Positions 4,511-58,056 of a DNA stretch of 64,000 bases are shown in pieces. The stretch's first letter is position 1; the number at the start of each line of letters is the position of its first letter. The notes below the pieces were generated by a model, which was not told where the DNA came from, ran no database searches, and was given only the letters and a program-made list of their open reading frames with translations. The stretch is taken from the NCBI GenBank assembly GCA_965242865.1, contig CBDETK010000013.1, positions 3,168,001 through 3,232,000 of the forward strand. Direction: 5' to 3'. The position numbers were made by a program, and so were the translations under genes. The DNA comes from Candidatus Latescibacterota bacterium. GTDB lineage: Bacteria; Latescibacterota; UBA2968; UBA8231.

Positions 4511-4846
4511 ATGAACTTTTTGACTTTGATCTTGCAGTCGGCGCTGATGGCTCCGCTGGTGGAGTTCGCCACGTCGACGAGCGGCCACGTTGAGCCGCGC
4601 GAGGGCTTGGCACTGGGCTGGCTGGGCAGCGTGGTGGCGGGGCTGGCGGTGGTATTCAGCACGGCCGAACGGACGCCGGCCGATTCCTGCTACGGAATAG
4701 CCGAAGACTCCCATGGATCGGTTTGTCTTCCCTACGCATGTGCGTTTGATCATGAAGGGCGGCCTAGGGGGTGGTACCAAGCAAACTACTATCACTCGTC
4801 GGTTACAGGCTGTCAACAAGACAGAGGATGGTCCTGCAATTGCTGA
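4511..4846 (+). CDS. Cys-rich secreted peptide 1 (constant leader, 6-Cys variable core)
   Basis: RBS AAGGAG; first gene after the sigma-54 promoter; leader nearly identical to that at 17496; hydrophobic stretch then TPA|DSC. Confidence 0.8.
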   Translation: MNFLTLILQSALMAPLVEFATSTSGHVEPREGLALGWLGSVVAGLAVVFSTAERTPADSCYGIAEDSHGSVCLPYACAFDHEGRPRGWYQANYYHSSVTGCQQDRGWSCNC

Positions 4847-4851
4847 GAGTA

Positions 4852-4893
4852 CAGCCGCTGTGGCACTTTAGGGCTTGAGTGCCACAGCGACTG
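4852..4893 (+). other. Stable stem-loop after the peptide gene
   Basis: GCTGTGGCACT...AGTGCCACAGC, no U-tract; homolog with compensatory changes at 17934. Confidence 0.65.
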
Positions 4894-4956
4894 CAATCTG
4901 ATAGGTGGAAATATTAGAGGGGCTATACACCCATCCAACGACTTTGGAGGCGAATT

Positions 4957-7086
4957 ATGCGCGGCTTGCTCTTTGTTATTGGGCTATTGACCGCTCCGCT
5001 TGGAGCCTTCGCTCTAACGTGGGATTTTGACGAGGACACCACGTGGGGCTGGACCGCTCGGGAGAGCATCTTAGGAGATGACTTTGGAAGCTCCAGTACT
5101 ACGGTGTATAGCGAGGTAGCCGATGGCGTCTGGCGCATTGCGCCCGTGCCGAACTCTCAACGACCAGCCATCAATTTGCGTTCGCCGCCAATTGGGGAAG
5201 ATTCTGCCTTGTTTGACCGGGTCACCCTACGGCTGCGCATCATTCATGATCGCCACACTGAGGGACGAATCCAGATGGCGTGGTTCAATGCCGAGTATAG
5301 ACGCCTCAAAAAGGAATCGGGTTCATCCTTTATAACAGAATTGATTGGTCGTTTTTTTCTGGTACGTACACAACGTTATCCCACTGAATGGGAAGACATC
5401 ACTGTCGATCTGCGTACTTTGGCAGCAGCCCTAAAACGAGAAATCACTTGGCAGGATACTCTCTTCGACTTCCAGTTAGAACTGGATTTAAACGAATTCT
5501 CCCAAGGTCCGGTCGATCATCCAGTCTTTTTAGAAGTGGACTGGATTCAACTGACGGGGACTGAGGAGTTGCTATTGGGAGAATTACAGCCTCGGGCGGT
5601 CTTCTTGGAGGTGGGATTGCTTGGCAGGTTGTTCGCTGAACTCGGCTTTTTTCCCCTTGGCGTGGGTATTGAGGATATACGCTCAGGTTATGGGCTTCCG
5701 CAAAGTGCGTTGGGCGATGTGGACGGCGATGGGGATGTGGACTTGGTAACGGACTGGACGCGCTCCGACGCCGGCCAGACCTCGGGCTGGATGGTAGCTT
5801 CTAACGATGGTTTGGGGCACTTGGTCCCATTCAGGGAGTACACATCCCCTCTTGGACTTATAAGCCAACTCCAAGGGGGTGATTTTAACGGGGATGGACT
5901 CCTCGATCTGGCCTTTGCTGACGGTCGGAACCTCGAACTGTGGCTCAACAAAGGCGAAGACCGCTTTGAAGTTACTCTACAACTGTCCGATGTCTTATTC
6001 AATGGCCTAGCCGATGGCGATGGAGACGGGGACGTGGACCTGTTGAGTGTGGAAGTAGGCGATTCGCAGTACAACGCGATCCTATGGCTCAATGACGGCA
6101 ATGCCGGGTTTGCCCTCAGCGATCGGTTTGCCCCTAACAGCGAGGAGAAGCTCTTTCCTTTTGCGCTCGCTGGACACTCGTTGGGCGAGGCCGTGCGCCT
6201 GTTATGGGTTCGGCCCTGTTACCAACCTCAAGGTACTTGGCAGCTAACCCAGCCGTGGGCGGCTAGCGCGGAACCGATGCTGTTTCTTGACCCAGTGGTC
6301 AACCCCTGTAACCTGCACTTGCTCGCCGATTTGGATGACGATGGAACAGCAGAATTAATCGGGGCTGCTGAACGCGATTTACAATTCGATCCTTTTTACA
6401 CTGGCACAACCTATCACGGTTTGGCCCTGTGGCGTCTGGACGAGTCGGGCGAGTTGGTACGCCACGTTCTGCTTGATTCAGAGGTGCTTTTACCGCATCG
6501 CGCCATTGCCCACGACCTCAACGGCGATGGCCTGTTGGACTTGGCTGTGGTTGATGGCAACTTGGCGACCGGACCGGCGCTGGTGGTGCTGACCGGCCAG
6601 CGCGATGGCTTGCCCGTCGTCGAAGGCCGCTATCGGCTGCCGGGCACGGGCGGTCCCATCCTCGCCGGCGACCTCAACGGCGATGGGGCCGCCGATCTGG
6701 TCGTTCTCGGACGAAGCATAGAAGGCGGTCCGGGCGGAGCTTTCGTCTTTCTCAACCAGAGTGCGCCAGCCACCGCCATCGCCGCCGAGACGCTGACTAC
6801 GCCCACGGCCTTTGCCCTCGGGGCCAACTATCCCAACCCATTCAACCCAGCCACGACCATCCCCTTGGCACTGCCGGCCGACGCTGGCGAGGTGGCCTTA
6901 ACTATCTACAATGTCTTGGGGCAGCCGGTGCGCCGCGTATGGGCAGGTTCGTTGGCCGCCGGCGAGCATCGACTGGCTTGGGATGGCCGGGACGCGCAGG
7001 GGCAGTCCGTCGCCGCGGGGGTCTATTGGTATCGGTTGCAGGTGGGCGATCAGACGCACACCCGCAAGATGATCAAAATCGAATAG
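4957..7086 (+). CDS. Secreted FG-GAP/VCBS-repeat protein with FlgD-Ig tail, paralog A
   Basis: Signal peptide AFA|LTWDFD; multiple GDxDGDGxxDL repeats; GANYPNPFNPATTI...WDGRD...GVYWYRL. Confidence 0.88.
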   Translation: MRGLLFVIGLLTAPLGAFALTWDFDEDTTWGWTARESILGDDFGSSSTTVYSEVADGVWRIAPVPNSQRPAINLRSPPIGEDSALFDRVTLRLRIIHDRHTEGRIQMAWFNAEYRRLKKESGSSFITELIGRFFLVRTQRYPTEWEDITVDLRTLAAALKREITWQDTLFDFQLELDLNEFSQGPVDHPVFLEVDWIQLTGTEELLLGELQPRAVFLEVGLLGRLFAELGFFPLGVGIEDIRSGYGLPQSALGDVDGDGDVDLVTDWTRSDAGQTSGWMVASNDGLGHLVPFREYTSPLGLISQLQGGDFNGDGLLDLAFADGRNLELWLNKGEDRFEVTLQLSDVLFNGLADGDGDGDVDLLSVEVGDSQYNAILWLNDGNAGFALSDRFAPNSEEKLFPFALAGHSLGEAVRLLWVRPCYQPQGTWQLTQPWAASAEPMLFLDPVVNPCNLHLLADLDDDGTAELIGAAERDLQFDPFYTGTTYHGLALWRLDESGELVRHVLLDSEVLLPHRAIAHDLNGDGLLDLAVVDGNLATGPALVVLTGQRDGLPVVEGRYRLPGTGGPILAGDLNGDGAADLVVLGRSIEGGPGGAFVFLNQSAPATAIAAETLTTPTAFALGANYPNPFNPATTIPLALPADAGEVALTIYNVLGQPVRRVWAGSLAAGEHRLAWDGRDAQGQSVAAGVYWYRLQVGDQTHTRKMIKIE

Positions 7087-7116
7087 ACGACCCGAAGCTA
7101 TCACTGGAGGTGACCT

Positions 7117-9267: not shown

Positions 9268-9296
9268 ACGACCGCAGTTATCACTGGAGGTGCATG

Positions 9297-11420: not shown

Positions 11421-11442
11421 ACGACCGATTTGGAGGTGCATG

Positions 11443-13560: not shown

Positions 13561-13642
13561 ACGACCGATTTGACTGCGCGATCTACAGACCTTGTTGGAC
13601 CATCACCCGACATGGGCAAAACCGAACGGAGCGCAAATCATA

Positions 13643-14250
13643 ATGAGTCGCTTAAAAATAGAAGAGGGAAAGGTCCTCAAAGCACTGGCCCAAGCTGAGG
13701 TAAATGAGGATAAACAAGGAATGACAGCGGCCCATCTTCAATTAGGCCATCTACACAAGAGAGCCGGCCAACTTGAACGGGCAGAAGCCGCCTATCAGCG
13801 TGCCCGCGTCTTGGCCGAAAAGTCGGTGCTGCCCTAGAGGCCGATGCCTATAGCGGCTGGGGTCTGTTGTGTGAGGTGCAGGGCAACTTGGGGCGGGCGT
13901 GGGAACTGCTCATGTCATCTTATGAGATAAACAGGGCAGGCGAGGACCGAGCGCGCTTGGCGGACAATTACAGCAATCTGGGTTTTCTGGCGCAAATGCA
14001 GGGCGATTTTGCCGATGCCGAGCGCCTGTACGGCTATGCCTTGCACCTGCGCGAAGAACTGGCAGACAAGGCTGGACGGGCCGTGGGGGACAAATCTATC
14101 TCCAGACGGAGCGGCTCGACGAGGCCGAATCCATGTATCGGAAAGCCCTATCCGTACAGGAGCGGTTGGGACATAAGCGCAACCAAGCCAGCGCGGCCGG
14201 CCATCTGAGCATGATATATCAGCAGCACCAAGCGCACGAAAGCGCGAAAG
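13643..14250 (+). pseudogene. Fragmented tetratricopeptide-repeat gene
   Basis: TPR-like helices (LGHLH..AGQLERAEAAYQRA; YSNLGFLAQMQGDFADAERLY; MYRKALSVQERLG) spread over several frames. Confidence 0.7.
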
Positions 14251-14273
14251 AGATGGCGCAGAAAGGTTGCTAT

Positions 14274-16160
14274 ATGGTGGCTTCAGCGGTGAAACATGCC
14301 CTCCGATCCAGTGGATTGGTCGCGTATGTGGCTCTGTCGTTGCTGCATCCTTCGCATCTTAGAGCCTTCACTTGGGACTTTGCTCAAGAAGGCGATGCCC
14401 AAGGTTGGGTGGCTTGGGAAAGCGGGGCTTCGGGCGCGGTAATTAGAGTACCGCTGCATTCGGAAACAGCCGGCGGAGTATGGCGCGTTGCGCCCCGGGA
14501 CTTTGTGCCCGGTATCAGGCCGATAATCGAATTGATCTCCCCGCCGATTGGCCGCGATTCGGCCCTGTTCAACCGAGTGCGCGTCCGCCTGCGCGTACTG
14601 CATACACAGCCGCTCGAAAGTCAGATTACGCTCCTGTGGAAGAATCCCGCGAACAAGGATCACCTAGGATTCTTTATCAACGCGCCGCCGAGAACGGGGA
14701 TTGATCATACTACCTTGCTCAAGGGCCAACGCCATACCTACACTGTGGACTGGCAGGAGGTGACGATCGATAGTGTAGCATCCAAGACTTATGTACGAGA
14801 GGACAAGGTCTATCGGCGTCTATGGGAGGGTGAATTGCTCGAAATACGCCTTCGCCTGCCCTTGTTCAACTACTCAAAGGACGTGGAGGGACCGGGGGAG
14901 ATCCCCGAGGCGGTAGAAATCGATTGGATCGAGTTGACCCATGCGGAAAGGCCAGATTCAGAGGGCGCGCCGCCGAGGGGGGAAGAGCCGTACCCTGTCG
15001 GGACGCTCTTTGCTCTACCGATCTTTTATCCTTTAGACCAGCATGGATTGGACGTAGGGCAGCGCGGCCAGCCCGTAGCCGAATTGGGGGATCTGGATGG
15101 CGATGGCGACATGGACGTGGCGGCAGTATGGAAAGACTGGCAGCCCAGCACGAACTCCGACAGGGCCGGTTGGCTGTGCGCGTTCAATGAAGATGGTCGC
15201 TTTTCCCCCAAGGTCCGCATGGAACCATTCCCCACAATCGCTCCCATACCTAGGCTGGCCGGTGCTGATTTGCTCGGCGATGAGCGCATGGAACTCATCG
15301 TAGGCTCTGGTCGTTCACTCGACCTATTGGAGCATTCATCAGCTATCTGGTCGGTAGCGCGACATGTGGATGGGGCGATTCCCTTGGGTACAGGCGATGT
15401 CGATGGAGACGGAGACGAGGATATATGGCTGGCCGAGTTCTACTCCAAGCTCTCGGAGCGTGCCGTCATTTTGCTCAATGATGGGGAGGGGCGGTTCGAC
15501 AAACGAATGACTCTGGCCCCCGAATTGGCCGAGTTCGCTTGGTCGCCCATGCGGCTGATCGATCATATCCCGGGTGGCCGCAAGACGGGATTGCTTTGGG
15601 GCGGCCCCGATGTGGGCACTCCATACGACTATATGGCGACCTATCTGGACGATAATGGAGAAACCGTCCAAGAGTACCTCCGAGTGGATGCCGCGGCGGA
15701 TTTGATCTGTTACGCGGGCGATTTTGATCGGGATGGAGATACAGATATGGTCGCGGGTAGAGCGGTCACCTCTACGACGATAGGCTCTGTGCCCACAGTG
15801 CTCACCGGGCTAGACCTTTTGATCAATCGAGGCGATGGCGTCTTGGACAAGGTTGCATGGTATGAGAGGGGGCATGTACAACAGGATGTGGTGTTTTCCG
15901 ACCTCAATGAAGATGGTATCTTGGACGCAGTGTTTGTCGATCGCGATTTCCGCCAGCCGGCACTCGTCGTCAACATGGGAAGAAGGAACGGTGTGCCCCT
16001 GCGGGAAGGCCACTATCCGCTGCAAGGGTTGGGTGGAACAGTCGTGGATGGCGACATGGATGGCGACGGCGACCTAGACTTGGTCGTGCTGGAAAATGCC
16101 GTGCGCGGGGGGGGCAGTGGCATATACATCCTGTCCAACCAGACAAAAACAGACGACTGA
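14274..16160 (+). CDS. Divergent FG-GAP protein without FlgD tail, paralog K
   Basis: LRA|FTWDF...GW, SPPIGRDSALF..VRVRLR, VEIDWIEL, GDLDGDGDMD repeats; ends at LSNQ where the other paralogs continue into the tail. Confidence 0.8.
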   Translation: MVASAVKHALRSSGLVAYVALSLLHPSHLRAFTWDFAQEGDAQGWVAWESGASGAVIRVPLHSETAGGVWRVAPRDFVPGIRPIIELISPPIGRDSALFNRVRVRLRVLHTQPLESQITLLWKNPANKDHLGFFINAPPRTGIDHTTLLKGQRHTYTVDWQEVTIDSVASKTYVREDKVYRRLWEGELLEIRLRLPLFNYSKDVEGPGEIPEAVEIDWIELTHAERPDSEGAPPRGEEPYPVGTLFALPIFYPLDQHGLDVGQRGQPVAELGDLDGDGDMDVAAVWKDWQPSTNSDRAGWLCAFNEDGRFSPKVRMEPFPTIAPIPRLAGADLLGDERMELIVGSGRSLDLLEHSSAIWSVARHVDGAIPLGTGDVDGDGDEDIWLAEFYSKLSERAVILLNDGEGRFDKRMTLAPELAEFAWSPMRLIDHIPGGRKTGLLWGGPDVGTPYDYMATYLDDNGETVQEYLRVDAAADLICYAGDFDRDGDTDMVAGRAVTSTTIGSVPTVLTGLDLLINRGDGVLDKVAWYERGHVQQDVVFSDLNEDGILDAVFVDRDFRQPALVVNMGRRNGVPLREGHYPLQGLGGTVVDGDMDGDGDLDLVVLENAVRGGGSGIYILSNQTKTDD

Positions 16161-16241
16161 ATGGGTAGCCCTGCCAAAAAGAAAGGGGCATAAGATGATG
16201 AGTTGTGCCGTGGTACATAACTGAGGAGGGGACTGCGAGGC

Positions 16242-17137
16242 ATGGAAATCATTCCGTTAATTCCCGAACGCGACGTAGCGATACAGTGCGCACATGCCGC
16301 ACAAGATCGCGATATACGCACCCAAGGGAAGGCTTGTCTCCTTTCCACACAGCGTTGGGGAATAGGGCTTATTGGGCTGAAGAATGCGGCAACTTGGGGC
16401 AGTTGGCACTCCAGCAAAACAAACCGGACGAGGCTGAGGCTCACTTCCAACAGGGCTTGAAGGTTTGCACAAAACTCGGCGATCTGTCGGGCATTTCCGG
16501 CCACTATCAGGGCTTGGGGCTGGTCTATCTCGGACAGCAGCGTTTGGCCGAAGCCGAAACCGTCCTCAAAAAAGGCGTTGAGATCGAGGAGCGACTCCAG
16601 CACGACGAGGGGTTGGCTCATCATTACAGCGTTCTGGGGGCCGTATATAGCCAAGCGGGTCGATTTGATGAGGCGGCAGCAATGTACCGTCGGACGCTGG
16701 CGACCCAACAAAAATTAGGCAATAAACAGTTTGAGGCTCGCACCTTGGGCGGTCTGGGACAGGTGCTACGGGAGAAAGGCGACCTGCGAGAAGCCACGGC
16801 GTTCTTTCAACAGGCGAGGGCACTGTTTGACGCGATTGGAGACAACAGAGGCCAAGCGGTACAAGCGGCTATTTTGGGCGATATTTATATGGACGTTGAA
16901 AACTTTAATGCGGCTGAGGAGGCATATCGGCAGGCGTTGCAACTGTTCACGGAAGTATCAGACTTAGAGGCTGTAGCCGCCGTTAAAGTCAGCTTGGGGA
17001 GGGCCTATGCGTCGAATCAGGCCCCTTTTGATGCCTTACTTCAGTGGCGGCAAGCACTAGAACTATACCGCGAACTCCAACGCGGCGACAAGGTTGAGTT
17101 CGTAGAAGAACTGCTGAGGACGAGCGGCCGAATGTGA
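16242..17137 (+). CDS. TPR protein, probably frameshifted or internally deleted near the 5' end
   Basis: About 6 TPR units in frame 16205..17137; the RBS-preceded ATG at 16242 is in another frame. Confidence 0.65.
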
Positions 17138-17152
17138 AGCGGCTAATCTGTA

Positions 17153-17217
17153 AAAAGTCGTGCAAAAGTCGTGCAAAAGTCGTGCAATCCGAACAACTTT
17201 TGCACGACTTTTGCACG
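17153..17217. promoter_or_regulatory. 11-bp tandem/inverted repeat array, putative activator site, copy 2
   Basis: AAAAGTCGTGC x3 followed by inverted TTTTGCACGACTTTTGCACG. Confidence 0.6.
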
Positions 17218-17299
17218 GAAAATCGCCGATCAACTGGCACCGACGCCTTACGCTGGCCTCGTAGAAAATTATTTTTAGCTATCCAACACCTTGTTTTTC

Positions 17300-17330
17300 A
17301 ATCCTTTAGGATTACCTAAAGGATTTTTTT
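17300..17330 (+). terminator. Hairpin plus T-tract, copy 2
   Basis: AATCCTTTAGG-ATTA-CCTAAAGGATT-TTTTT. Confidence 0.55.
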
Positions 17331-17348
17331 GTGCCGGACCGGCCTCGT

Positions 17349-17364
17349 TGGCACGAAACTTGCA
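17349..17364 (+). promoter_or_regulatory. Sigma-54 -24/-12 promoter, copy 2
   Basis: TGGCACGAAACTTGCA. Confidence 0.88.
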
Positions 17365-17495
17365 ATAGTCATTACAAGACAAGCGAAGCTCATCTACCAG
17401 AAAGGAGGTGCATTCCGTGCTCGTAGGTATGATGCTCGTCAGCAACCGCACTGGTTTGCTGATCCTTTTTCCTATCACTCAAGGAGAGTTGAGTT

Positions 17496-17825
17496 ATGAA
17501 CTTTTTGACTTTGATCTTGCAGTCGGCGCTGATGGCTCCGCTGGTGGAGTTCGCCACGTCGACGAGCGGCCACGTTGAGCCGCGCGAGGGCTTGGCACTG
17601 GGCTGGCTGGGCAGCGTGGTGGCGGGGCTGGCGGTGGTATTCGGCACGGCCGAACGGACCCAGGCCGATTCCTGCTACGGAATCTCCGAGGGAAGCACGG
17701 GCTCTTACACAACGGGTCGTCCGTGCGAGTGGAGAGACCATAAACCCTCGGCTTATTGGAGGGAATATTATTACCACGAACCTCGTGATCAGGGCTGTAC
17801 CTATCTGTATGCTGTATGCGTATAG
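17496..17825 (+). CDS. Cys-rich secreted peptide 2 (4-Cys core)
   Basis: Leader nearly identical to that at 4511; core DSCYGISEGSTGS...PCEW...YYYH...GCTYLYAVCV. Confidence 0.8.
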   Translation: MNFLTLILQSALMAPLVEFATSTSGHVEPREGLALGWLGSVVAGLAVVFGTAERTQADSCYGISEGSTGSYTTGRPCEWRDHKPSAYWREYYYHEPRDQGCTYLYAVCV

Positions 17826-17933
17826 CCCGGCCGCTCAGTGCTCCGTCGCTGGATTCCCGGCTGTATCTATCAGCGTTTTACATGCGGCTAGGTGAGGTCC
17901 TGTGACGTTGCCCGGCCGTTGCAGAAACGACGC

Positions 17934-17970
17934 GCCCCTGTGGTACTTTCGGGCCGAGTACCACAGGGGC
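17934..17970 (+). other. Stem-loop after peptide 2
   Basis: GCCCCTGTGGTACT...AGTACCACAGGGGC. Confidence 0.65.
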
Positions 17971-18020
17971 AGGCGGCCAGAACACCCTAAAACACATCTA
18001 TCACGCTCTGGAGGTTCGTT

Positions 18021-20144
18021 ATGCACGGCTTGCTGGTTGCGATTGGATTGGTGGTGGTTCCGCTTAAAGCCTTTGCTTTAACGTGGGATTTTGACGACGG
18101 CACGACTTGGGGATGGACCGCCCAAGAGAGTGCCTACGGCTCTGACTATGGCACCACCACGGTGTTCAGCGAAGTCGAAGATGGCGTCTGGCGCATTGCG
18201 CCGGTGCCGCACGGGAAAAGACCAGCCATTCGCTTGCTCTCGCCGCTGATTGGGGAAGACTCTGACCTGTTCGACTGGGTCACCTTACGGCTACGCATCA
18301 TCCACAATTACCCCACCGAGGGGGTCCTTGAAATGTCGTGGTCTAATGTCGAGTACAGACGCCTCAAGGAGGAAGACTCCATCATAGGGTTGGGGTTTTT
18401 TATGAGCCGGCCTCAAGTTTATTCCACCGAATGGGAAAACATCACCATAGATATACGGGGCTTGGAAGCGGCCCCAGCAGAAGAGATCAATTGGGAGATC
18501 ATTTGGCAGGACACCCTCTTCCACTTTTTCCTAGACCTAGACTTATTGCAACTACACGACATACAAGAATCCAGCTTAAGCCCGGCCGATCGTCCGACCT
18601 TTGTCGAAGTTGATTGGATTCAACTGACGGGGGCCGAAGAGTTGCTGCTGGGGGAATTGCAGCCCCGGGAGGTCGCCGTGGAGGCCGGGTTGCTTGGGAC
18701 GTTGTTCGCGGAACCGCGTTTTTCGGTGCTGGGCCAAAATATCGGTAGCCCAACATCGCACGGTACTTTGGGCGATGTGGACGGCGATGGGGATGCCGAT
18801 CTAGTCGTGAAATGGGATACAATGGAGAGCACGGGCTGGACTATAGCGACCAGCGATGGCTTGGGGGGCTTGGTTTCCACCCCAGAGGTCCGCCTCCCAA
18901 CCGGGCATCCGACAATTGCGGGGGGCGATTTTGACGGGGATGGTCTTCTCGATCTGGCCTTTAGCGACGGTCGAACCATCGAATTGTGGCTCAACCGGGG
19001 CGAAGATGGATTTGAAACCATCCTACAGCTACCCGACAGTCACCTCATCGGTCTAGCCGATGGCGATGGCGATGGCGATGTGGACCTGTTGGTATTAGAG
19101 GAGTACGACGACCTATGGTCTAACGTGACTATGTGGATCAACGACAGCGCGGGTGGGTTTGTCCACAGCAATCGGTTCGTCCTCGACACCGAAGAAGAGC
19201 TCGATCCTTCCCTGCTGGCAGGGCAACCGGTGGGCGAGGCCGTGCGCCTGTTGTGGAACCGGCCCTGCTGGAAGCCGGTGGGGCCTTGGCGGCTGACCCA
19301 GCCATGGGCGGCGAACGAGGAGCCACCGCTGTTTTTTGAGACCGGCGAGGTCAAATCCTGCGACATGTACCTGCTGGCCGATCTGGATGGGGATGGAGCG
19401 GTGGAGTTGGTTGGAACGCCTGAGCGGAACCTGGCCCTAGGCTTTTCTAACGGCAACACCCATCACGGTTTGGCCCTGTGGCACGTGGACATCGCGGGCG
19501 GGTTGGAACGCCATATCCTGCTCGGTCCGCAGGTGATCGTGCCGTATTCGTGGCCTAGGAGTGGGGTCATTGCCAGCGACCTGACCGGCGATGGCCTGCT
19601 GGACATAGCCGTGATCAATATCAACCTAGCGGGTCCGGCACTGATCGTCTTGGTCGGCCAGCGCGATGGCCTGCCCGTCGTCGAAGGACACTATCCCCTG
19701 CCCAGCATCGGCCGCAGCCTAGTCGCGGGCGATGTCAACGGCGATGGGGCGGCCGATCTGGTCGTGCTGGGACGGAGTCAGCGCGGCGAGGGCGGAGCCT
19801 CCGTCTTCCTCAACCAAGGCGTTCCCGCCACCGCCATCGCCGCCGAGACAACGACTACCCCCTCAGCCTTTGTCCTTGGTGCCAACTATCCCAACCCGTT
19901 CAACCCGGCCACGACTATTCCCGTGTCGGTGTCGGCGGGTGCGGGCGAGGTAGATTTAACCATCTACAATGTCTTGGGGCAGCCGGTGCGCCGCGTGTGG
20001 AACGGTTCGTTGGCCGCCGGCGCCCACCGGCTGGCTTGGGATGGCCGGGACGCGCAAGGACAGCCGGTCGCCGCGGGCGTCTATTGGTATCGGTTGCAGG
20101 TGGACGACCAGACGCACACCCGCAAAATGGTCAAACTTGAATAG
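18021..20144 (+). CDS. FG-GAP/FlgD protein, paralog E
   Basis: Same architecture; closest to paralog F. Confidence 0.88.
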   Translation: MHGLLVAIGLVVVPLKAFALTWDFDDGTTWGWTAQESAYGSDYGTTTVFSEVEDGVWRIAPVPHGKRPAIRLLSPLIGEDSDLFDWVTLRLRIIHNYPTEGVLEMSWSNVEYRRLKEEDSIIGLGFFMSRPQVYSTEWENITIDIRGLEAAPAEEINWEIIWQDTLFHFFLDLDLLQLHDIQESSLSPADRPTFVEVDWIQLTGAEELLLGELQPREVAVEAGLLGTLFAEPRFSVLGQNIGSPTSHGTLGDVDGDGDADLVVKWDTMESTGWTIATSDGLGGLVSTPEVRLPTGHPTIAGGDFDGDGLLDLAFSDGRTIELWLNRGEDGFETILQLPDSHLIGLADGDGDGDVDLLVLEEYDDLWSNVTMWINDSAGGFVHSNRFVLDTEEELDPSLLAGQPVGEAVRLLWNRPCWKPVGPWRLTQPWAANEEPPLFFETGEVKSCDMYLLADLDGDGAVELVGTPERNLALGFSNGNTHHGLALWHVDIAGGLERHILLGPQVIVPYSWPRSGVIASDLTGDGLLDIAVININLAGPALIVLVGQRDGLPVVEGHYPLPSIGRSLVAGDVNGDGAADLVVLGRSQRGEGGASVFLNQGVPATAIAAETTTTPSAFVLGANYPNPFNPATTIPVSVSAGAGEVDLTIYNVLGQPVRRVWNGSLAAGAHRLAWDGRDAQGQPVAAGVYWYRLQVDDQTHTRKMVKLE

Positions 20145-20244
20145 GGAGCGGACGTGCTGGAGACGTTGCGCCAACCCATAGCGGCTGACTGGCAGCGTTC
20201 CATGGACTGGTTAGGCCCTGTCGAGAAGCGAAGGACATAAGACG

Positions 20245-21567
20245 ATGAGACGACCGTGGAAAGCACCGCTCCGCAAAAACAGAACCCTGCAAAGCTGCTT
20301 GGCGGTGTCGCTGGCCTTGCATCTGCTGGTGATCTTCGGCATCACGCACCGCGAACAGGTTGCTCAGTTTCCTGTCCTACAGCCGATCATGGTGGAGTTC
20401 ACCAAACGCCCGCCGCCGCAGCGCACTCTCACCCGCCGCCAACGGCCCCGCCAACGGCCCTTAGTGCGCCGCCCCGCCCTGCAAGCCGCCCCGGTCGTTG
20501 CGGTGCGACCCGCCCCCACGGCGACACGGCCCCTGCCGATGTTCAAGCCATCGGCACTTAGGCTGCCGATGGCAGCATTGCCCGATCGACTGGTGCTACC
20601 CGTGCCGGACTTCCCCGCTCGGCACATTGGTCCGCAAATGCAGGCTGGGGCATTGGAAGGAACGCGACAGGGGACCGACGAGATTGACTTGGCCTTAGAA
20701 CTGATGGATGTGCAGGCCATGGACACCGGCCAGCACCGGGCGATGGTGGTCGTCGATCCAAAAGACCGGCGTCAACTCAAGGGATTCCTCTATATGTCCA
20801 ATGTGTATAGCTCCTCCATTGAACGGGCTGAGCGAGAAACATCACGCCGACTTTTGCAGACGCGCCAAATGGTGGAAAACCGGATGCTGCAAGGGTTGGC
20901 CGACAAAATGGTCGCCAGTACGCAGGTTCACGCCGAAGTGCTCGACGCGGTGGCACTAGACGACCCCCAGCTACTGCAGGTGCCCTTCGTCCTCCTGACG
21001 GTGAGTGATCATTTTGAGTTCACCGAGGCGGAGACAGCTAATCTCGGAGCGTACTTGACTTCGGGTGGCTTCCTGTTTGCGGATATTGTCAGCCCATTGC
21101 AGCGCGAATACAGCGACGACGAATTGGATATTCCCGCGGTGCGTTCCCTCATTCGCACCAGCTTTCAGGCGGCGGGTTATCAAGAATGGAAGGACTGGCA
21201 ATTTGGACGCCTAGCGATGACCCATCCGATCTACCATTGCTTCTACGATGTAGAGAGTCTCCCCCGCGGGATGCGCGATATGCACTATACCGGCGGAGTG
21301 CGGCGGCCTCCGCGGACTCCGGACTATTTGGAGGGCATCATAGTCGGGGATCAGTTGGTGGGCGTGTATTCGATGCGCGGGTACGCCGATTTCTGGGCGG
21401 GAATCGCCAAGGAGGAAACGGAGATATTTGATCCTGTTCTTTTTGGCGATAGTCCGTTTCTGGCCAGTGCCGAGGAGCCGATGGTGTATAACTTAGGCGT
21501 CAATTTCTTGGTGTATGCGTTGACACGCGAGGGATCACTGACCCGACAATTAGTCGCTGCGGACTGA
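20245..21567 (+). CDS. Membrane-anchored DUF4159-like protein, paralog 2
   Basis: N-terminal TM SLALHLLVIFG, Pro/Arg-rich linker, PFVLLT...EAETANLGAYLTSGGFLFAD...HPIYHCFYD. Confidence 0.8.
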   Translation: MRRPWKAPLRKNRTLQSCLAVSLALHLLVIFGITHREQVAQFPVLQPIMVEFTKRPPPQRTLTRRQRPRQRPLVRRPALQAAPVVAVRPAPTATRPLPMFKPSALRLPMAALPDRLVLPVPDFPARHIGPQMQAGALEGTRQGTDEIDLALELMDVQAMDTGQHRAMVVVDPKDRRQLKGFLYMSNVYSSSIERAERETSRRLLQTRQMVENRMLQGLADKMVASTQVHAEVLDAVALDDPQLLQVPFVLLTVSDHFEFTEAETANLGAYLTSGGFLFADIVSPLQREYSDDELDIPAVRSLIRTSFQAAGYQEWKDWQFGRLAMTHPIYHCFYDVESLPRGMRDMHYTGGVRRPPRTPDYLEGIIVGDQLVGVYSMRGYADFWAGIAKEETEIFDPVLFGDSPFLASAEEPMVYNLGVNFLVYALTREGSLTRQLVAAD

Positions 21568-21626
21568 GAGCTATCAGAACAAACTGTGTGGATCCTTTTT
21601 ATTACTCTTTAAGTGAGGAATGAGTT

Positions 21627-22325
21627 ATGCAGTCTTTAACGTTTGTCTTTAAGGCCCTCGCCACGTCAGCGAGCGAGCACATAGAGCCACGTCAGGGGTT
21701 GGTGCTGATGGTGCTGAGGTGGCTGGGTAGCGTGGTGGCGGGGCTGGCGATGGTGTTCGGCACGGCCGCCCGGACGCCGGCCGATCCCTGCTTTGGGATC
21801 GCAGAGGGAAGCAGCGGATCGCACACAACGCCGTATCCATGCGAGTGGCAAGACCACAAATCCGCCGAGTATTTCCACTATTCTGAGACGCCGGCCGACA
21901 GCTCTCGGTCTGAGACGCCGGCCGATAGCTCTCGGCAGGATCATTATTTACACCATCGTGGAAATCCGGGATGTGTTTATCTGGGTTCTACCTGTGGCTC
22001 AAGTGCGGCCACCGCCATCGAGGCCGAGGCGGCGACTACACCTTCCACTTTTGCCCTCGGTGCCAACTACCCCAATCCATTCAATCCGGCCACGACCATC
22101 CCCTTGGTGCTACCCGCCGGAGCTGAGGAGGTGGACTTAACCATCTACAACGTCTTGGGGCAGCCGGTGCGCCGAGTGTGGGCGGGTTCGTTGGCGGCGG
22201 GCGAGCATCGGCTGGCTTGGGATGGCCGGGACGCGCAGGGGCAGCCCGTCGCCGCGGGCGTCTATTGGTATCGGTTGCAGGTGGACGACCAGACGCGCAT
22301 TCGCAAGATGGTCAAAATTGAGTAG
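21627..22325 (+). CDS. Cys-rich peptide 3 fused to FlgD-Ig tail
   Basis: Leader WLGSVVAGLA.VFGTA, core DPCFGIAEGSSGS...PCEW...GCVYLGSTC, then GANYPNPFN tail. Confidence 0.8.
   Translation: MQSLTFVFKALATSASEHIEPRQGLVLMVLRWLGSVVAGLAMVFGTAARTPADPCFGIAEGSSGSHTTPYPCEWQDHKSAEYFHYSETPADSSRSETPADSSRQDHYLHHRGNPGCVYLGSTCGSSAATAIEAEAATTPSTFALGANYPNPFNPATTIPLVLPAGAEEVDLTIYNVLGQPVRRVWAGSLAAGEHRLAWDGRDAQGQPVAAGVYWYRLQVDDQTRIRKMVKIE
21882..21935 (+). repeat. 27-bp tandem repeat encoding SETPADSSR x2
   Basis: tctgagacgccggccga(c/t)agctctcgg twice. Confidence 0.85.
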
Positions 22326-22410
22326 GGCGAAGGCTCTTGAGCCATGCACTCAAAGAAAGGGACATAAGACGATGAGACGACCCGAAGCTATCACGCTCTG
22401 GAGGTGCATT

Positions 22411-24543
22411 ATGCGCGGCTTGCTCGTTGCGATTGGATTGTTGGTGGTTCCGCTTAAAGCCTTCGCTTTAACGTGGGATTTTGACGACGGCACGACTTGG
22501 GGATGGACCGCCCAAGAGAGCCCTTTAGGCTCTGACCGTAGTACCACCACGGTGTATAGCGAAGTCGAAGATGACGTCTGGCGCATTGCACCGGTGCCGA
22601 ACGGGCTAAAACCAGCCATTCGCTTGTTATCGCCGCTGATTGGGGAAGACTCTGACCTGTTTGACTGGGTCACCTTACGGCTACGCATCATCCACGATCA
22701 CCCCACCGAGGGGAACTTCCTGATGACGTGGTCCAATACCGAGTACAGAAGCTTCACGAAGGAAGCACTTCGCGAAAAAAAAATCGCGTTGAGGTTTTAT
22801 ACGGGCCGTTCTCAACTTTACCTCACCGAATGGCAAAACATCACCGTAGATATACGGGCCTTGGAAGCCGGTGCGGAAACGGACCCAGAAGCAGAGATTA
22901 CTTGGCAAGACACCCTCTTCCACTTCCACTTCGACCTAGACTTATTGCACATAGACGACGTATATGTATATGACTTAAAACCGGAGGATCGTCCGGCTTT
23001 TGTCGAAGTCGATTGGATTCAACTGACGGGGGCCGAAGAGCTGCTACTGGGGGAACTACAGCCCCGGGCGAACACCGTGGAGGCCGGGTTGCCCGGGACG
23101 TTGTTCGCAAAACCGCGGTTTTCGGTGCTGGGCCAAAATATCGGTGTCCCCATATCGCATGGTACTTTGGGCGATGTGGATGGCGATGGGGATGCCGATC
23201 TGGTCGTGGGCTGGAAAGTGTGGGATACGGGCTGGACTATAGCAACCAGCGATGGCTTGGGGGGCTTGGTTCCCACCCAAGAGGTCCGCCTCCCAAAGGC
23301 GATTGTTCCGGTTATCGTGGGGGGCGATTTCAACGGCGATGGGCTGCTCGATCTGGCCCTTGATACCGGTCGAACCATCGAATTGTGGCTCAACCGGGGC
23401 GAGAATGAATTTGAGACCATCCTACAGCTATCCGGCGGCTATCTCATCGGTCTAGCCGATGGCGACGGCGATGGCGATGGGGACCTGTTGGTGGTAGAGG
23501 ACCTCGACGACCGCTGGTCTAACGTGACTATGTGGATCAATGATGGCGCGGCCGGGTTTGCCCACAGCGACCAGTTCGTCCTCGACACCGAAGAAGAGCT
23601 CGGGGTTTCCCTGCTGGCAGGGCAACCGGCGGGCGAGGCCGTGCGCCTGTTGTGGAGCCGACCCTGCTGGAAGCCGGTGGAGCGGTGGCGCCTGACCCAG
23701 CCATGGGCGGCCAGCCAGCCGCCACCGCTGTTTTTTGAGACCGGGCAGACCAATCCCTGCGACATGTACCTGCTGACCGATCTGGATGAGGATGGAGCGG
23801 TGGAGTTGATCGGGACGCCCGAACGGAATCTGTACTTAGGCTTTTCTGTGGGCAACACCTACCACGGTTTGGCTGTGTGGCGGGTGGACGCCGCGGGCGG
23901 GGTGGAACGCCACACCCTGCTCGGTCCGCAGGTGATGGTGCCGTTTGCGTTTGCGGGTGGGGTTATTGCCCGCGACCTGACTGGCGATGGCCTGTTGGAC
24001 TTGGCTGTGATCGACATCAACATAGCGACGGGTCCGGCGCTGATCGTCTTGGTTGGCCAGCGCGATGGCCTGCCCATCGTCGAAGGGCGCTATCCCCTGC
24101 CGGGCATCGGCCACAAGGTACTAGCGGGCGATGTCAACGGCGATGGGACGACCGATCTGGTCGTGCTGGGACGGAGTCAGCGCGGCGAGGGCGGAGCCTC
24201 CGTCTTCCTCAACCAAGGCGTTCCCGCCACCGCCATCGCCGCCGGGACAACGACCACCCCCTCAGCCTTTGTCCTTGGTGCCAACTATCCCAACCCGTTC
24301 AACCCGGCCACGACTATTCCCGTGTCGGTGTCGGCGGGTGCGGGCGAGGTAGATTTAACCATCTACAATGTCTTGGGGCAGCCGGTGCGCCGAGTGTGGG
24401 CGGGTTCGTTGGCGGCGGGTGCCCACCGGCTGGCTTGGGATGGCCGGGACGCGCAAGGACAGCCGGTCGCCGCGGGCGTCTATTGGTATCGGTTGCAGGT
24501 GGACGACCAGAGGCACACCCGCAAAATGGTCAAAATTGAATAG
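22411..24543 (+). CDS. FG-GAP/FlgD protein, paralog F
   Basis: Start reassigned to ATG 22411 after GGAGG. Confidence 0.88.
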   Translation: MRGLLVAIGLLVVPLKAFALTWDFDDGTTWGWTAQESPLGSDRSTTTVYSEVEDDVWRIAPVPNGLKPAIRLLSPLIGEDSDLFDWVTLRLRIIHDHPTEGNFLMTWSNTEYRSFTKEALREKKIALRFYTGRSQLYLTEWQNITVDIRALEAGAETDPEAEITWQDTLFHFHFDLDLLHIDDVYVYDLKPEDRPAFVEVDWIQLTGAEELLLGELQPRANTVEAGLPGTLFAKPRFSVLGQNIGVPISHGTLGDVDGDGDADLVVGWKVWDTGWTIATSDGLGGLVPTQEVRLPKAIVPVIVGGDFNGDGLLDLALDTGRTIELWLNRGENEFETILQLSGGYLIGLADGDGDGDGDLLVVEDLDDRWSNVTMWINDGAAGFAHSDQFVLDTEEELGVSLLAGQPAGEAVRLLWSRPCWKPVERWRLTQPWAASQPPPLFFETGQTNPCDMYLLTDLDEDGAVELIGTPERNLYLGFSVGNTYHGLAVWRVDAAGGVERHTLLGPQVMVPFAFAGGVIARDLTGDGLLDLAVIDINIATGPALIVLVGQRDGLPIVEGRYPLPGIGHKVLAGDVNGDGTTDLVVLGRSQRGEGGASVFLNQGVPATAIAAGTTTTPSAFVLGANYPNPFNPATTIPVSVSAGAGEVDLTIYNVLGQPVRRVWAGSLAAGAHRLAWDGRDAQGQPVAAGVYWYRLQVDDQRHTRKMVKIE

Positions 24544-24643
24544 GGAGCGGACGTGCTGGAGACGTTGCGTCAACCCATAGCGGCTGACTGGCAGCGTTCC
24601 ATGGACTGGTTAGGCCCTGTCGAGAAGCGAAGGACATAAGACG

Positions 24644-25981
24644 ATGAGACGACCGTGGAAAGCACCGCTCCGCAAAAACAGAACCCTGCAAAGCTGCTTG
24701 GCGGTGTCGCTGGCCTTGCATCTGCTGGTGATCTTCGGCATCACGCACCGCGAACAGGTTGCTCAGTTTCCCGTCCTGCAGCCGATCATGGTGGAGTTTA
24801 TCAAACGCCCGCCGCCGCAGCGCACCCTTACCCGCCGCCAACGGCCCCGCCAACGGCCCTTAGTGCGCCGCCCCGCCCTGCAAGCCGCCCCGGTCGTTGC
24901 GGTGCGCCCGGCTCCCACGGCGACACGGCCCCTGCCGATGTTCAAGCCATCGGCACTTAGGCTGCCGATGGCAGCATTGCCCGATCGACTGGTGCTACCC
25001 GTGCCGGACTTCCCCGCTCGGCACATTGGTCCGCAAATGCAGGCTGGGGCATTGGAAGGAACGCGGCAGGGGACCGACGAGATTGACTTGGCCTTAGAAC
25101 TGATGGATGTGCAGGCCATGGACACCGGCCAGCACCGGGCGATGGTGGTCGTCGATCCAAAAGACCGGCGTCAACTCAAGGGATTCCTCTATATATCTGG
25201 CATCTACAGCCCCTCCATTGAACAAGCTGACAATGAACATCCCGGATACAGACCAGCGAACTGGTGGCACCGGATGCCGCGCCGATTGATGGAACGGCAG
25301 ATGTTGCAAGGATTGGCCGATGAGATGACCGCCAAGACACAAGTTCAGGTTGAAGTGCGCGACGCGGTCCGGCTCGACGATCCCCAGCTTTTGCAAATCC
25401 CCTTCGTGCTGTTGACCATTGATACCTTCTTTGAGTTTACGGACAGCGAGGCGGCCAACCTCGGGGCGTATTTAACTTCGGGTGGCTTCTTGTCTTTGGA
25501 TATTGGGAGCTTTTTGCAGGACAATTACAGCGACGACGAATTGGATATTCCGGCGGCGCGTTCTCTCATTCGCGCCAGCTTTCAAGCGGTGGGTCATCAA
25601 GAATGGAAGGATTGGCAGTTCAAGCGCCTAGAGATAACGCATCCGATCTATCATTGCTTCTACGATATAAACAGCCTGCCGCGTGGGATGCGCGATATGC
25701 ACTTTCTAAACTTAGAAGCTCCACCACCAACTCCGGACTATTTAGAGGGTATCGTAGTAGGGGAGCAGTTAGTGGGGGTGTACTCGATGCGTGGCTACGC
25801 CGATTTCTGGGCGGGAATCGCTAGGCAGGAGCTAGACCACGCTTTGGAGTATAGCTCACCCAGCAACTGGTTTCTGGCCAGTGCCGAGGAGCCGATGGTG
25901 TATAACTTGGGCGTCAATTTCTTGGTGTATGCGTTGACACGCGAGGGGTCACTGACCCAACAATTAGTCGCTGCGGACTGA
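24644..25981 (+). CDS. DUF4159-like protein, paralog 3
   Basis: N-terminal ~180 aa nearly identical to 20245; central part divergent. Confidence 0.8.
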   Translation: MRRPWKAPLRKNRTLQSCLAVSLALHLLVIFGITHREQVAQFPVLQPIMVEFIKRPPPQRTLTRRQRPRQRPLVRRPALQAAPVVAVRPAPTATRPLPMFKPSALRLPMAALPDRLVLPVPDFPARHIGPQMQAGALEGTRQGTDEIDLALELMDVQAMDTGQHRAMVVVDPKDRRQLKGFLYISGIYSPSIEQADNEHPGYRPANWWHRMPRRLMERQMLQGLADEMTAKTQVQVEVRDAVRLDDPQLLQIPFVLLTIDTFFEFTDSEAANLGAYLTSGGFLSLDIGSFLQDNYSDDELDIPAARSLIRASFQAVGHQEWKDWQFKRLEITHPIYHCFYDINSLPRGMRDMHFLNLEAPPPTPDYLEGIVVGEQLVGVYSMRGYADFWAGIARQELDHALEYSSPSNWFLASAEEPMVYNLGVNFLVYALTREGSLTQQLVAAD

Positions 25982-26040
25982 GAGCTATCAGAACAAACTG
26001 TGTGGGTCCTTTTTCTTAACTCTTTAAGGAGAAATGAATT

Positions 26041-26913
26041 ATGCAGTCTTTAACGTTTGTTTTTAAGGCCCTCGCCACGTCGGTGAGCGAACACGTAGAG
26101 CCGCGTCAGGGCTTGGCTCTCGGCTGGCTGGGCAGCGTGGTGGCGGGGCTAGCGGTGGTGTTCGGCACGGCTAGCCAGACCCAGGCCGATCCCTGCTTTG
26201 GAATCGCGGGGGAAAGCCATGGATCGCACAAAACGATGCGTCCATGCGAGTGGAAAGACCATGAACCCGCCGAGTACTGGTGGGAGCATTACTTCCACTA
26301 TTCTAGAACGCCGGCCGATAGCTCTGGGCAAAGTCCGGGATGTGTTTATCTGACTTCTACCTGTGGCCCAAGTGCGGCCCCCGTCATCGTGGCCGAGACG
26401 CCGACCGATACCTGTTTTGGGATCGCAGAGGGAAGCAGCGGATCACACACAACGCCGTATCCATGCGAGTGGAAAGACAATAAACCCGCCGAGTACTGGT
26501 GGGATCATTATTTTCACTCTTCTGAGACGCTGGCCGATAGCTCTGGGCAAAGTCCGGGATGTGTTTATCTGACTTCTACCTGTGGCCTAAGTGCAGCCAC
26601 CGCCATTGAGGTCGAGACGCCGACTACCCCTTCCACTTTTGTCCTCGGTGCCAACTATCCCAACCCGTTCAATCCGGCCACGACCATCCCCCTTACCCTG
26701 CCCGCCAGTGCCGAGGCGGTGGACGTAACCATCTACAATGTCTTGGGGCAGCCCGTGCGCCGAGTATGGAACGGTTCGTTGGCCGCCGGCGCACACCGGC
26801 TAGCTTGGGATGGCCGGGACGCCGCGGGCAAGCCGGTCGCCGCGGGGGTCTATTGGTATCGGTTGCAGGTGGACGATCAGACGCACACCCGCAAGATGGT
26901 CAAAATCGAATAG
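26041..26913 (+). CDS. Cys-rich peptide 4 with two tandem cores fused to FlgD-Ig tail
   Basis: Core repeated with a 219-nt period (Asp codons at 26188 and 26407). Confidence 0.8.
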   Translation: MQSLTFVFKALATSVSEHVEPRQGLALGWLGSVVAGLAVVFGTASQTQADPCFGIAGESHGSHKTMRPCEWKDHEPAEYWWEHYFHYSRTPADSSGQSPGCVYLTSTCGPSAAPVIVAETPTDTCFGIAEGSSGSHTTPYPCEWKDNKPAEYWWDHYFHSSETLADSSGQSPGCVYLTSTCGLSAATAIEVETPTTPSTFVLGANYPNPFNPATTIPLTLPASAEAVDVTIYNVLGQPVRRVWNGSLAAGAHRLAWDGRDAAGKPVAAGVYWYRLQVDDQTHTRKMVKIE

Positions 26914-58008: not shown

Positions 58009-58056
58009 GTTAGCCTCCTTTATGTAGCAATCGCGGTAAGTTCTTGCTCGCACCCA

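Follow-up and report, generated by a model that had tools for sequence, protein, structure and literature searches.

The four genes g4511, g17496, g21627, and g26041, located in a 64,000-nt stretch of the genome of a Candidatus Latescibacterota bacterium (C13:3168001-3232000; hereafter, the window), encode small Cys-rich proteins built from a nearly constant leader and a highly variable core. Together with their relatives, they represent a large, undescribed family in sponge-derived Latescibacterota, predicted to encode precursors of small disulfide-rich secreted proteins. With high confidence, the family is real, its products are exported disulfide miniproteins, and its leader is under functional constraint. 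The best reading of the genomic context, and in our view a fairly probable one, is that a pathway dedicated to processing and oxidative folding makes these hypervariable disulfide miniproteins, some of which are exported via the type IX secretion system (T9SS). The observation made in an earlier note on this DNA is confirmed and its interpretation is partly supported. Absent from that note were the sigma-54 control, the module of A24 peptidase, FMN_bind-like, and redoxin genes, the second subfamily, and the duplication of the upstream DNA; the predicted sigma-54 promoters with upstream repeats on the free peptide genes and the conserved module beside the leader genes are new here.

All four open reading frames (ORFs) were found on the + strand where the earlier note had placed them: g4511 (4511-4846, 111 aa), g17496 (17496-17825, 109 aa), g21627 (21627-22325, 232 aa), and g26041 (26041-26913, 290 aa, two cores), each preceded, 7-9 nt 5′ of the ATG, by a Shine–Dalgarno-like AAGGAG or GTGAGGA. 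Alignment and motif positions confirmed that these genes carry five cores with the consensus D-x-C-[YF]-G-I...S-x-G-S...C...Y-[YF]-H...G-C-x6/7-C. In the free peptides, the leader spans aa 1-57 (4511..4681 in g4511, comprising the n-region motif, G32|L33...W37, the hydrophobic helix, and T-P-A|D; 17496..17666 in g17496, delimited by translation and alignment), and the remainder, stop codon included, is the core (4682..4846 with six Cys in g4511, placed by alignment, with 6-Cys relatives existing; 17667..17825 with four Cys in g17496, predicted to be a small four-stranded beta domain). The two longer genes begin with short-form leaders recognized by alignment (aa 1-52, 21627..21782, in g21627; aa 1-49, 26041..26187, in g26041) and end with a secretion tail: in g21627, a 4-Cys core (21783..22034) is followed by a linker and a T9SS C-terminal sorting domain (22035..22325), and in g26041, core 1 with its linker (26188..26406) and core 2 (26407..26622), both with four Cys and placed by alignment, precede a T9SS type A sorting domain (26623..26913). 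The core of g21627 is longer than those of g26041 through a tandem duplication of an internal 9-residue segment (window 21900-21960) in the loop that links the aromatic motif to the last pair of Cys.

The family is hallmarked by the asymmetry of leader and core. The leaders of g4511 and g17496 differ at two of the 57 residues, and their codons 1-58 are identical at 171 of 174 nt; at the same time, the strongly diverged cores, with six and four Cys, respectively, retain identity at 60 of the 129 aligned nt. In the wider family (120 listed of the 185 homologues of g17496), the mean pairwise identity amounts to 82% for the leaders and 39% for the cores. Over 37 gap-free leader codons in 20 of the 22 DNA sequences, originating from several genomes, the mean non-synonymous divergence (dN) was 0.063 and the mean synonymous divergence (dS) was 0.68, i.e., a dN/dS of ~0.09 (190 pairs, NG86). 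The leader of g21627, with its 3-codon insertion, and a probable pseudogene in the locus L024 (L024:7207-7761, a leader ORF whose frame enters unrelated sequence) were dropped before this test. Hence, silent sites drift but the leader's amino acid sequence is held by strong purifying selection, so the protein sequence itself is selected, and far more tightly than a generic signal peptide needs. In the cores, non-synonymous change was ~10 times faster than in the leader (dN 0.59, dS 1.48, dN/dS 0.40; saturation left 59 of the 190 pairs unscored, and the core alignments are uncertain). The asymmetry described in the earlier note is thus both real and selected.

In an alignment of 21 leaders of types A, B, and distant (see below), S24, G32, and W37 are invariant, and S22, G25, and G50 are nearly so. 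The short n-region, presumably cytoplasmic, ends with [EF]-F-x-x-S-x-S-G-x-x-x-P-x-[RQ]-x-G, the invariant G32 being accompanied by R or K at -3 or -2; then, L-x-L-G-W opens an 18-residue Gly/Ser/Ala-rich hydrophobic segment. In all subfamilies, the leader closes with a Gly or Pro and a short polar stretch leading to A-x-A just ahead of the first Cys; Gly/Pro...A-x-A is a textbook c-region of a signal peptidase I substrate. The S-x-S-G...W motif is kept in members from other bacterial families with less than 35% identity. Since the n-region, the ~18-residue hydrophobic helix, and the A-x-A site are all visible in the alignment, the leader is best read as an extended signal peptide and not as a classical leader of RiPPs (peptides synthesized by ribosomes and modified after translation). 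Of the earlier reference to RiPP precursors and disulfide-rich secreted toxins, of which a leader/core asymmetry is typical, the asymmetry has stood, but the classical RiPP leader has not, with a probable extended signal peptide in its place and no known maturase in the scanned ORFs. The cleavage site at T-x-A|D proposed at that time fits the -3/-1 rule of signal peptidase I and generalizes to A-x-A before the first Cys, and a cut by this peptidase after A-x-A is quite likely.

The fused forms lend weight to this interpretation of the leader. The FlgD tail previously assigned to g21627 and g26041 was recovered as FlgD_ig (PF13860) with 53.2 and 51.4 bits, respectively; in the NCBIfam scan of the sorting-domain tails, which covered g26041, its tail also matched TIGR04183, the T9SS type A sorting domain (39.7 bits vs. 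the cut-off of 23, residues 206-288 of 290). Matches to PF18962 (Por_Secre_tail) stayed below its cut-off of 27, reaching 22.1 in g21627 and 24.8 in g26041. A search for the T9SS machinery, covering PorU and SprA, detected both in the genome (NF033707, 624 bits vs. the cut-off of 420, and TIGR04189, 482 bits vs. the cut-off of 200). The arrangement of a leader, one to four tandem cores, and a TIGR04183 or FlgD_ig tail recurs in relatives. T9SS cargo crosses the inner membrane via Sec and must be soluble in the periplasm; therefore, precursors in which leader and cores are fused to the sorting domain require Sec export, and in those forms the leader would act as a cleaved signal peptide. The FG-GAP cargo proteins encoded in the same operons use ordinary 20-residue signal peptides, so that the conserved n-region and helix of the peptide leaders constitute an extra feature in need of its own explanation. 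Within a genome, one leader variant is common to different core types, and almost identical cores carry different N-terminal variants across genomes, suggesting some concerted evolution or core exchange atop the protein-level constraint.

Disulfide bonding of the cores, as inferred earlier, is plausible because the Cys counts are even and thiol-disulfide oxidoreductase genes are linked to the family. The number of Cys is even in 113 of 120 cores (four in 42, six in 52, eight in 17, and two in 2), and the seven odd-Cys cores include evident frameshifted entries. In an AlphaFold2 model of g17496 built from a 46-sequence alignment, residues 61-109 were confident (block means of the predicted local distance difference test, pLDDT, of 86-93) and formed four beta strands, and the leader, a helix at residues 36-55 excepted, was of low confidence. 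For the core fold, Foldseek found nothing in the PDB at E<=0.001 (best 1.5), the best VIA-align hit among 48,161 chains (Z 3.4) was within noise, and the ESM Atlas returned no usable match for core residues 58-109; the Foldseek and VIA-align results indicate no known relative of the core and are not proof of a new fold. As a first guess, the cores may serve as binding modules facing the host or other microbes, with antimicrobial toxins as the second guess; a binding role is favored because the cores diverge fast, have aromatic-rich surfaces, and are displayed in tandem on a sorting domain.

The family extends well beyond the window. A word-indexed search of 5.8 billion proteins returned 185 homologues of g17496 at E<=0.01, all unnamed or "hypothetical", and the 120 of them listed all share its architecture. 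Searching with the leader separately, as the earlier note had recommended, was productive: a leader-only profile of 21 sequences matched 129 clusters at E<=0.001 and 35 at E<=1e-10 among 1.84 billion cluster representatives, nearly all of them 75-130 aa long with very diverse cores bearing mostly 6-12 Cys. The claim of a new family was borne out: no Pfam or NCBIfam model matches leader or core (for g4511 and g17496, zero Pfam families at E<=0.01), and no description of this bacterial family was found in the main texts of the full-text literature outside subscription journals. In PMC12993501, on sponge Latescibacterota, a term search gave no mention of T9SS, prepilin peptidase, or these peptides. 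All named genome records with relatives are metagenome-assembled genomes of Candidatus Latescibacterota, one being labelled Gemmatimonadota. DNA nearly identical to the window occurs in runs labelled sponge metagenome, and parts of the region were recovered from sponge metagenomes of three studies (four DNA runs) as short pieces fragmented by paralogues. In one database protein, P0128, a leader follows directly on the C-terminal part of an A24-like protein, possibly through a deletion or an error of assembly.

The window's genome (6.0 Mb in 13 contigs, 93.6% complete, 6.8% contamination) harbors 13 leader genes according to a leader hidden Markov model, the next match having an E-value of only 0.8. 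Five belong to type A, i.e., the four genes of the window and one at C13:3155669, 12 kb upstream of it. The other eight, of type B, encode proteins of 95-101 aa with a shorter leader and unrelated cores with 6-8 Cys; seven of them lie at 371-411 kb and one at 2.27 Mb. The former seven make up a mirror-image second cluster on the minus strand (G000:C13:366000-416000), in which each gene is followed by 1-3 FG-GAP/T9SS genes; this cluster also holds paralogues of the activator, DUF4159, TPR, glycosyltransferase, and FMN_bind-like genes.

A conserved module adjoins the leader genes in three bacterial families. In the related locus L018, the peptide gene is the fifth behind a sigma-54 promoter, after genes for a 381-aa polytopic protein matching Peptidase_A24 (26.9 bits, cut-off 26.5), for an FMN_bind-like protein, and for a pair of CxxC-bearing AhpC-TSA/Redoxin proteins, whose best NCBIfam matches are ResA, MauD, and StoA, all below cut-off; upstream of the promoter resides a gene for an activator of the Reg_prop/Y_Y_Y/Sigma54_activat/HTH_8 type. 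The same operon, referred to below as the master operon, is present in the window's genome at C13:3149146-3156016, with a peptidase 92% identical to that of L018. Here, the A24, FMN_bind-like (FMNb), and two redoxin (Trx) genes lie directly upstream of the first type A peptide gene (C13:3152624-3155669), with which the operon ends at 3155669, and five FG-GAP genes then extend as far as the window. Of 27 related loci (L018-L044), 18 hold three or more of the four module genes next to leader genes, the other nine being mostly short contigs or pieces adjoining a module-bearing locus. Three gene orders are represented: A24, FMNb, Trx, Trx, peptide in type A; activator, peptides, FMNb, A24, Trx, Trx in type B; and FMNb, Trx, Trx, A24, peptide in the distant type. 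In all four loci from two further taxonomic families, Trx genes and an A24 gene are followed by 1-3 leader ORFs.

The distribution of the two components was followed across 151 genomes of the phylum, taken as a fixed sample, with thresholds of E<=1e-10 for the A24-like gene and, using a broad profile, E<=0.001 for the leader ORF. An A24-like gene was present in 23 genomes and a leader ORF in 26; 22 had both and 124 had neither, these being descriptive counts which overstate independence, as the sampled genomes are related. In many genomes, among them G061, G065, G079, G088, G095, G098, G130, and G132, the distance from the A24-like gene to the start of a leader ORF downstream of it is within ~400 nt. 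The possibility that the module serves the FG-GAP proteins and not the peptides was rejected, since G079, G095, and G055 keep module and peptide adjacent without an FG-GAP gene downstream. In distant lineages (L032:5658-6659, L033:8621-9655, L040:1815-2762), the gene after the peptide belongs to a conserved family of ~320 aa with no Pfam match and no FG-GAP similarity, two members of which are 41% identical. As FG-GAP genes do not follow the peptide in these distant loci, the constant partners of the leader are the module genes. Overall, it is quite likely that they form a dedicated maturation module.

The A24 enzyme of the window's genome (C13:3152636-3153772) scores 30.7 bits against PF01478 (gathering cut-off 26.5) and is the only PF01478 match in the genome. 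All 12 A24-like homologues match this family (best E 2.3e-10), and 5 of the 12 weakly match the archaeal A24 C-terminal domain (Arc_PepC). D33 in Y-T-D-x3-R-x-[IV]-P-N and G92-D93-A-K-L are invariant (in 12 and 13 sequences); these are presumably the two catalytic Asp motifs of the A24 family, the second of them G-x-G-D-like, and the linked peptidase is apparently active. On a fold like that of FlaK, a solved member, structure prediction was uninformative: the model of the A24-like protein was of low confidence (mean pLDDT 63.9), which leaves its Foldseek list, with no match at E<=0.001, devoid of meaning, comparison with PDB sequences gave none for the single sequence and only a chance match (E 1.5) for the profile, and the predicted complex of the A24-like protein with leader residues 1-64 scored 0.07 and 0.12 (mark 0.32), weighing neither way.

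The free peptide genes are predicted to be driven by sigma-54-dependent promoters. The sequence TGGCAC-N5-TTGCA stands 145 nt 5′ of the g4511 ATG (4366..4381) and its counterpart 147 nt 5′ of the g17496 ATG (17349..17364). The full promoter TGGCACGAAACTTGCA is perfect at 4366 and 17349, giving two matches in the window vs. 0.01 expected by chance; the -24 GG and -12 GC elements are correctly spaced, rpoN is present in the genome (201 bits), and an activator gene with Sigma54_activat and HTH_8 adjoins the master operon. Of 29 TGGCAC-N5-TTGCW sites in the genome, seven stand 145-155 nt upstream of leader genes (two type A, five type B). The promoters are preceded by repeats, at 4170..4242 (two direct copies of AAAAGTCGTGCAA, one inverted copy, and CACGGAAAATCG) and at 17153..17225 (three direct copies of AAAAGTCGTGCAA, one inverted copy, and CACGGAAAATCG), which are probably an enhancer (upstream activating sequence) for the sigma-54 activator. 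Between repeats and promoter lies an 11-bp hairpin with a T-run resembling a terminator (4317..4342, 24 nt 5′ of the promoter; 17300..17325 in the same block upstream of g17496). All of these elements are on the + strand. The same hairpin and a related repeat occur in the upstream regions of type B genes. No Rfam family was found in the whole window, so this conserved upstream DNA is not a known RNA element. The tail-fused genes g21627 and g26041 have no such promoter; each lies 59 nt behind a DUF4159 gene (20245..21567, + strand, with no sigma-54 site of its own between it and g21627, and a second paralogue at 24644..25981, + strand, its likeness read from the translations only).

The upstream DNA also sheds light on the origin of the near-identical leaders. 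Identity between g4511 and g17496 starts 345 nt upstream of the ATG (319 of 343 nt), runs through codon 58, and then collapses; hence, duplication of a segment comprising promoter and leader accounts in part for how alike the two leaders are. The 5′ untranslated region of g17496 (17385..17495, + strand) is the remnant of a redoxin gene, with 69% identity over 36 aa to residues 199-234 of Trx2; this remnant of ~110 nt corresponds to the 3′ end of the second redoxin gene (Trx2) of the master operon. The repeat–hairpin–promoter block also separates the activator gene from the master operon's first gene, the only difference there being a G as the last promoter base. Because they share this block and the redoxin remnant, the g4511 and g17496 units look like copies of the master operon with the four accessory genes deleted.

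The proposed pathway would operate as follows. The precursor consists of the conserved leader, a probable extended signal peptide, 1-4 hypervariable cores of ~50 residues (4, 6, or 8 Cys), and an optional T9SS sorting domain. The adjacent Reg_prop/Y_Y_Y sensor-activator, bound to the upstream repeats, would switch on the sigma-54 promoter, and the peptide gene would be transcribed together with the downstream FG-GAP T9SS cargo genes. After insertion of the precursor in the inner membrane through Sec, signal peptidase I would cut after A-x-A, freeing the core into the periplasm, where the ResA/TlpA-like redoxin pair would form or shuffle disulfides, the FMN_bind-like membrane protein possibly being the electron sink. 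The archaeal-type A24 (GxGD) aspartic peptidase may recognize the n-region/helix junction G32|L33...W37 and cut the leader there, either before the signal peptidase cut or after it, in the manner of a signal-peptide peptidase; the cut at G32|L33 is put forward tentatively. Cores with a sorting domain would leave through the T9SS, to be displayed or released, and free cores would stay periplasmic or exit by another route. The broader idea, i.e., the recruitment of a GxGD (A24) protease as a dedicated leader peptidase for non-pilin precursors at S-x-S-G...G|L-x-x-x-W, together with an FMN-linked folding pair, is likewise possible and should be regarded as provisional.

Several observations weigh against this pathway. 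The FMN_bind match (18.9 bits) is below the Pfam cut-off of 22, its best NCBIfam match being RnfG, and the redoxin scores fall far short of the cut-offs for ResA and MauD. The type B cluster of the window's genome is without its own A24 or redoxin copy. Among the sampled genomes, G050 has the peptidase and no leader match, and G085 (75% complete), G121, G124, and G018 (a weak match) have leader ORFs only. G121 and G124 are complete, and their leader ORFs, mostly long and tail-fused, are accompanied by no A24-like match at E<=1e-10, so the peptidase may be dispensable for some forms. Some distant members have V, A, or S in place of G just ahead of the helix. The single A24 enzyme could serve the ordinary pseudopilins of the contig C1 if the latter belongs to this organism. 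Finally, positive selection on the cores, considered as a candidate, is not supported by their dN/dS of 0.40 with the saturation mentioned above. The contig C1, a small one, has a gene for T2SSF along with three pseudopilin-like ORFs of the GFxxxE kind (G000:C1:27932-29874).

Some of these facts would also be accommodated if the peptides were ordinary Sec-secreted small proteins, the leader being just a signal peptide kept constant by concerted evolution (gene conversion or recent duplication) and the A24 and redox neighbors being unrelated. The abrupt divergence of g4511 and g17496 after a shared upstream region and leader, the origin of the 5′ untranslated region from the master operon, the single leader variant per genome over different cores (with like cores elsewhere bearing other N-termini), and the leader ORFs of G121 and G124 without an A24-like gene all fit such a scenario. 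Still, we consider it unlikely: a leader dS of 0.68 against a dN of 0.063 in 20 sequences from several genomes shows selection on the protein itself, the S-x-S-G...W motif survives below 35% identity in other bacterial families, the FG-GAP cargo of the same operons makes do with ordinary short signal peptides, and the adjacency of the module persists across three gene orders. The tight linkage of the peptide genes, in A as well as B clusters, to an activator gene and sigma-54 promoters, along with the n-region being the most conserved part, raises the question of small bitopic regulators, in which the n-region would signal to the sigma-54 activator, the variable periplasmic Cys-rich domain would sense ligands, and A24 would release the n-region by regulated intramembrane proteolysis, GxGD proteases being able to act as signal-peptide peptidases. 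The A-x-A site and the T9SS-fused forms argue instead for release of the core, and up to eight paralogues with unrelated cores per genome would be unusual for a sensor, which leaves this the faintest of the options considered here.

The linked A24 gene naturally brings to mind class III signal peptides and their peptidases (PilD, TadV, FlaK, PibD), and with them a type IV pilin-like precursor cut only by A24 at G|L, whose helix would be retained in a filament or as the membrane anchor of a Cys-rich head. There are points of likeness: the linked, apparently active enzyme of archaeal architecture shows the PF01478 match in 12 of 12 homologues, the weak Arc_PepC match in 5 of 12, and both Asp motifs, and the leader presents a small residue at -1, a charge nearby, and a conserved +5 position at the start of the hydrophobic helix (G32 and W37, invariant in 21 sequences). 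Long leaders of this kind resemble type IVb and archaeal precursors, and non-pilin proteins with class III signals are known in archaea (PMC3047682). Nevertheless, position +5 is W, not E, so that G-F-x-x-x-E is lacking, and none of the four peptides scanned matched TIGR02532 at E<=0.1; in every subfamily, the helix is followed by a Gly/Pro...A-x-A site for signal peptidase I; these leaders also stand at the head of T9SS cargo, for which solubility in the periplasm is required; and the clusters examined showed no pilus assembly ATPase or platform gene. A pilin-like fate thus appears rather unlikely. Classical RiPP precursors, with Cys converted to thioethers, thiooxazoles, or sactionine-type links by a cytoplasmic leader-recognizing maturase, would share the logic of a conserved leader over hypervariable Cys-rich cores, the many precursors per genome (as in prochlorosin-type families with one leader and many cores), and the linked protease; RiPPs with Sec signal peptides also exist, e.g., bufferins, exported through Sec (PMC11626156). 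Here, however, no radical-SAM, LanM, YcaO, or DUF692 domain was found by Pfam among five operon proteins, eight window proteins, and ten further window ORFs (smaller ORFs being scanned in part); the even Cys counts and periplasmic-type CxxC redoxins point to disulfides formed by thioredoxin-fold proteins as the probable modification, and the predicted small beta domain of the cores, a confident one, agrees with this. Such an origin is, therefore, highly improbable, and the dedicated processing and oxidative-folding pathway remains the preferred reading.

Counterparts of individual features are known from other systems. Conotoxins are Cys-rich peptides with a constant pre-pro region. The mussel family MgCRP-I is organized similarly (PMC4558851). 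Like these animal peptides, the present family is multigene, with a near-constant signal or leader and fast-diverging disulfide-rich cores that keep the Cys framework; in contrast to them, it is bacterial, arranged in operons, apparently under sigma-54 control, endowed with an extra n-region motif, linked to A24 and redoxin genes, and in part fused to T9SS domains. The extended signal peptide region (ESPR, PF13018) is a conserved N-terminal extension before the Sec signal peptide of type V secreted proteins; it parallels our leaders in preceding an otherwise normal Sec signal peptide and in its restriction to one cargo class, whereas g4511 and g17496 gave no Pfam match, their cargo is tiny and not very large, and a protease gene is linked. 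The redoxin pair finds its closest analogy in the MauD/MauE-type and ResA/StoA-type thiol-disulfide systems, which share the CxxC redoxins; MauD is described as serving one disulfide-rich client. The difference, apart from the low scores, is in the partners, namely an FMN_bind-like protein and an A24 peptidase and not MauE or CcdA.

If the proposed pathway is true, the family would represent a new class of A24 substrates and would give sponge symbionts a new route, switched by sigma-54, to diversity of the conotoxin kind. Should the linkage be functional, A24 substrates would extend beyond pili, archaella, and bindosome proteins in a bacterium, and the leader, protease, and redox pair would constitute compact genetics for making diverse, stable disulfide-rich peptides. 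The sigma-54 operons pairing a variable miniprotein with T9SS-exported FG-GAP surface proteins would, under the same condition, offer a testable handle on the contacts of the symbiont with its host or neighbors. The N-terminal signal is recognizable and could be cast as a hidden Markov model, which could annotate hundreds of "hypothetical" small proteins. Disulfide-rich scaffolds of this kind are mined from cone snails and plants for bioactivity; here, they come from uncultured sponge symbionts.

As for the surroundings of the peptide genes, an FG-GAP-type gene is located 3′ of the peptide gene in most related loci. Downstream of g4511, the first gene of such a run (4957..7086, + strand) encodes an FG-GAP repeat protein (FG-GAP_3 67 bits, FlgD_ig 52 bits) that has a T9SS sorting domain and whose signal peptide is short and ordinary; another FG-GAP protein with a T9SS sorting domain (18021..20144, + strand; TIGR04183 35.8 bits) is encoded downstream of g17496. 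The window region 4957-35565 is occupied by a tandem array of ~10 paralogous genes for proteins of ~710 aa, in which a conserved N-terminal domain is combined with FG-GAP repeats and a T9SS sorting domain, and a relative of these genes at 14133-16160 is devoid of the tail. Between this array and a GH99-like gene lies a 99-aa ORF (37549-37848), by eye presumably akin to the GIY-YIG nuclease family. Further along, two MacB/FtsX-type permeases are encoded at 41175-43739 and 51539-54022, and a gene group on the minus strand (55115-61759) includes an ABC exporter (ABC_membrane and ABC_tran) and a Peptidase_S8/DUF1611 protein. The high G+C content of the window gives rise to many long spurious overlapping ORFs on both strands.

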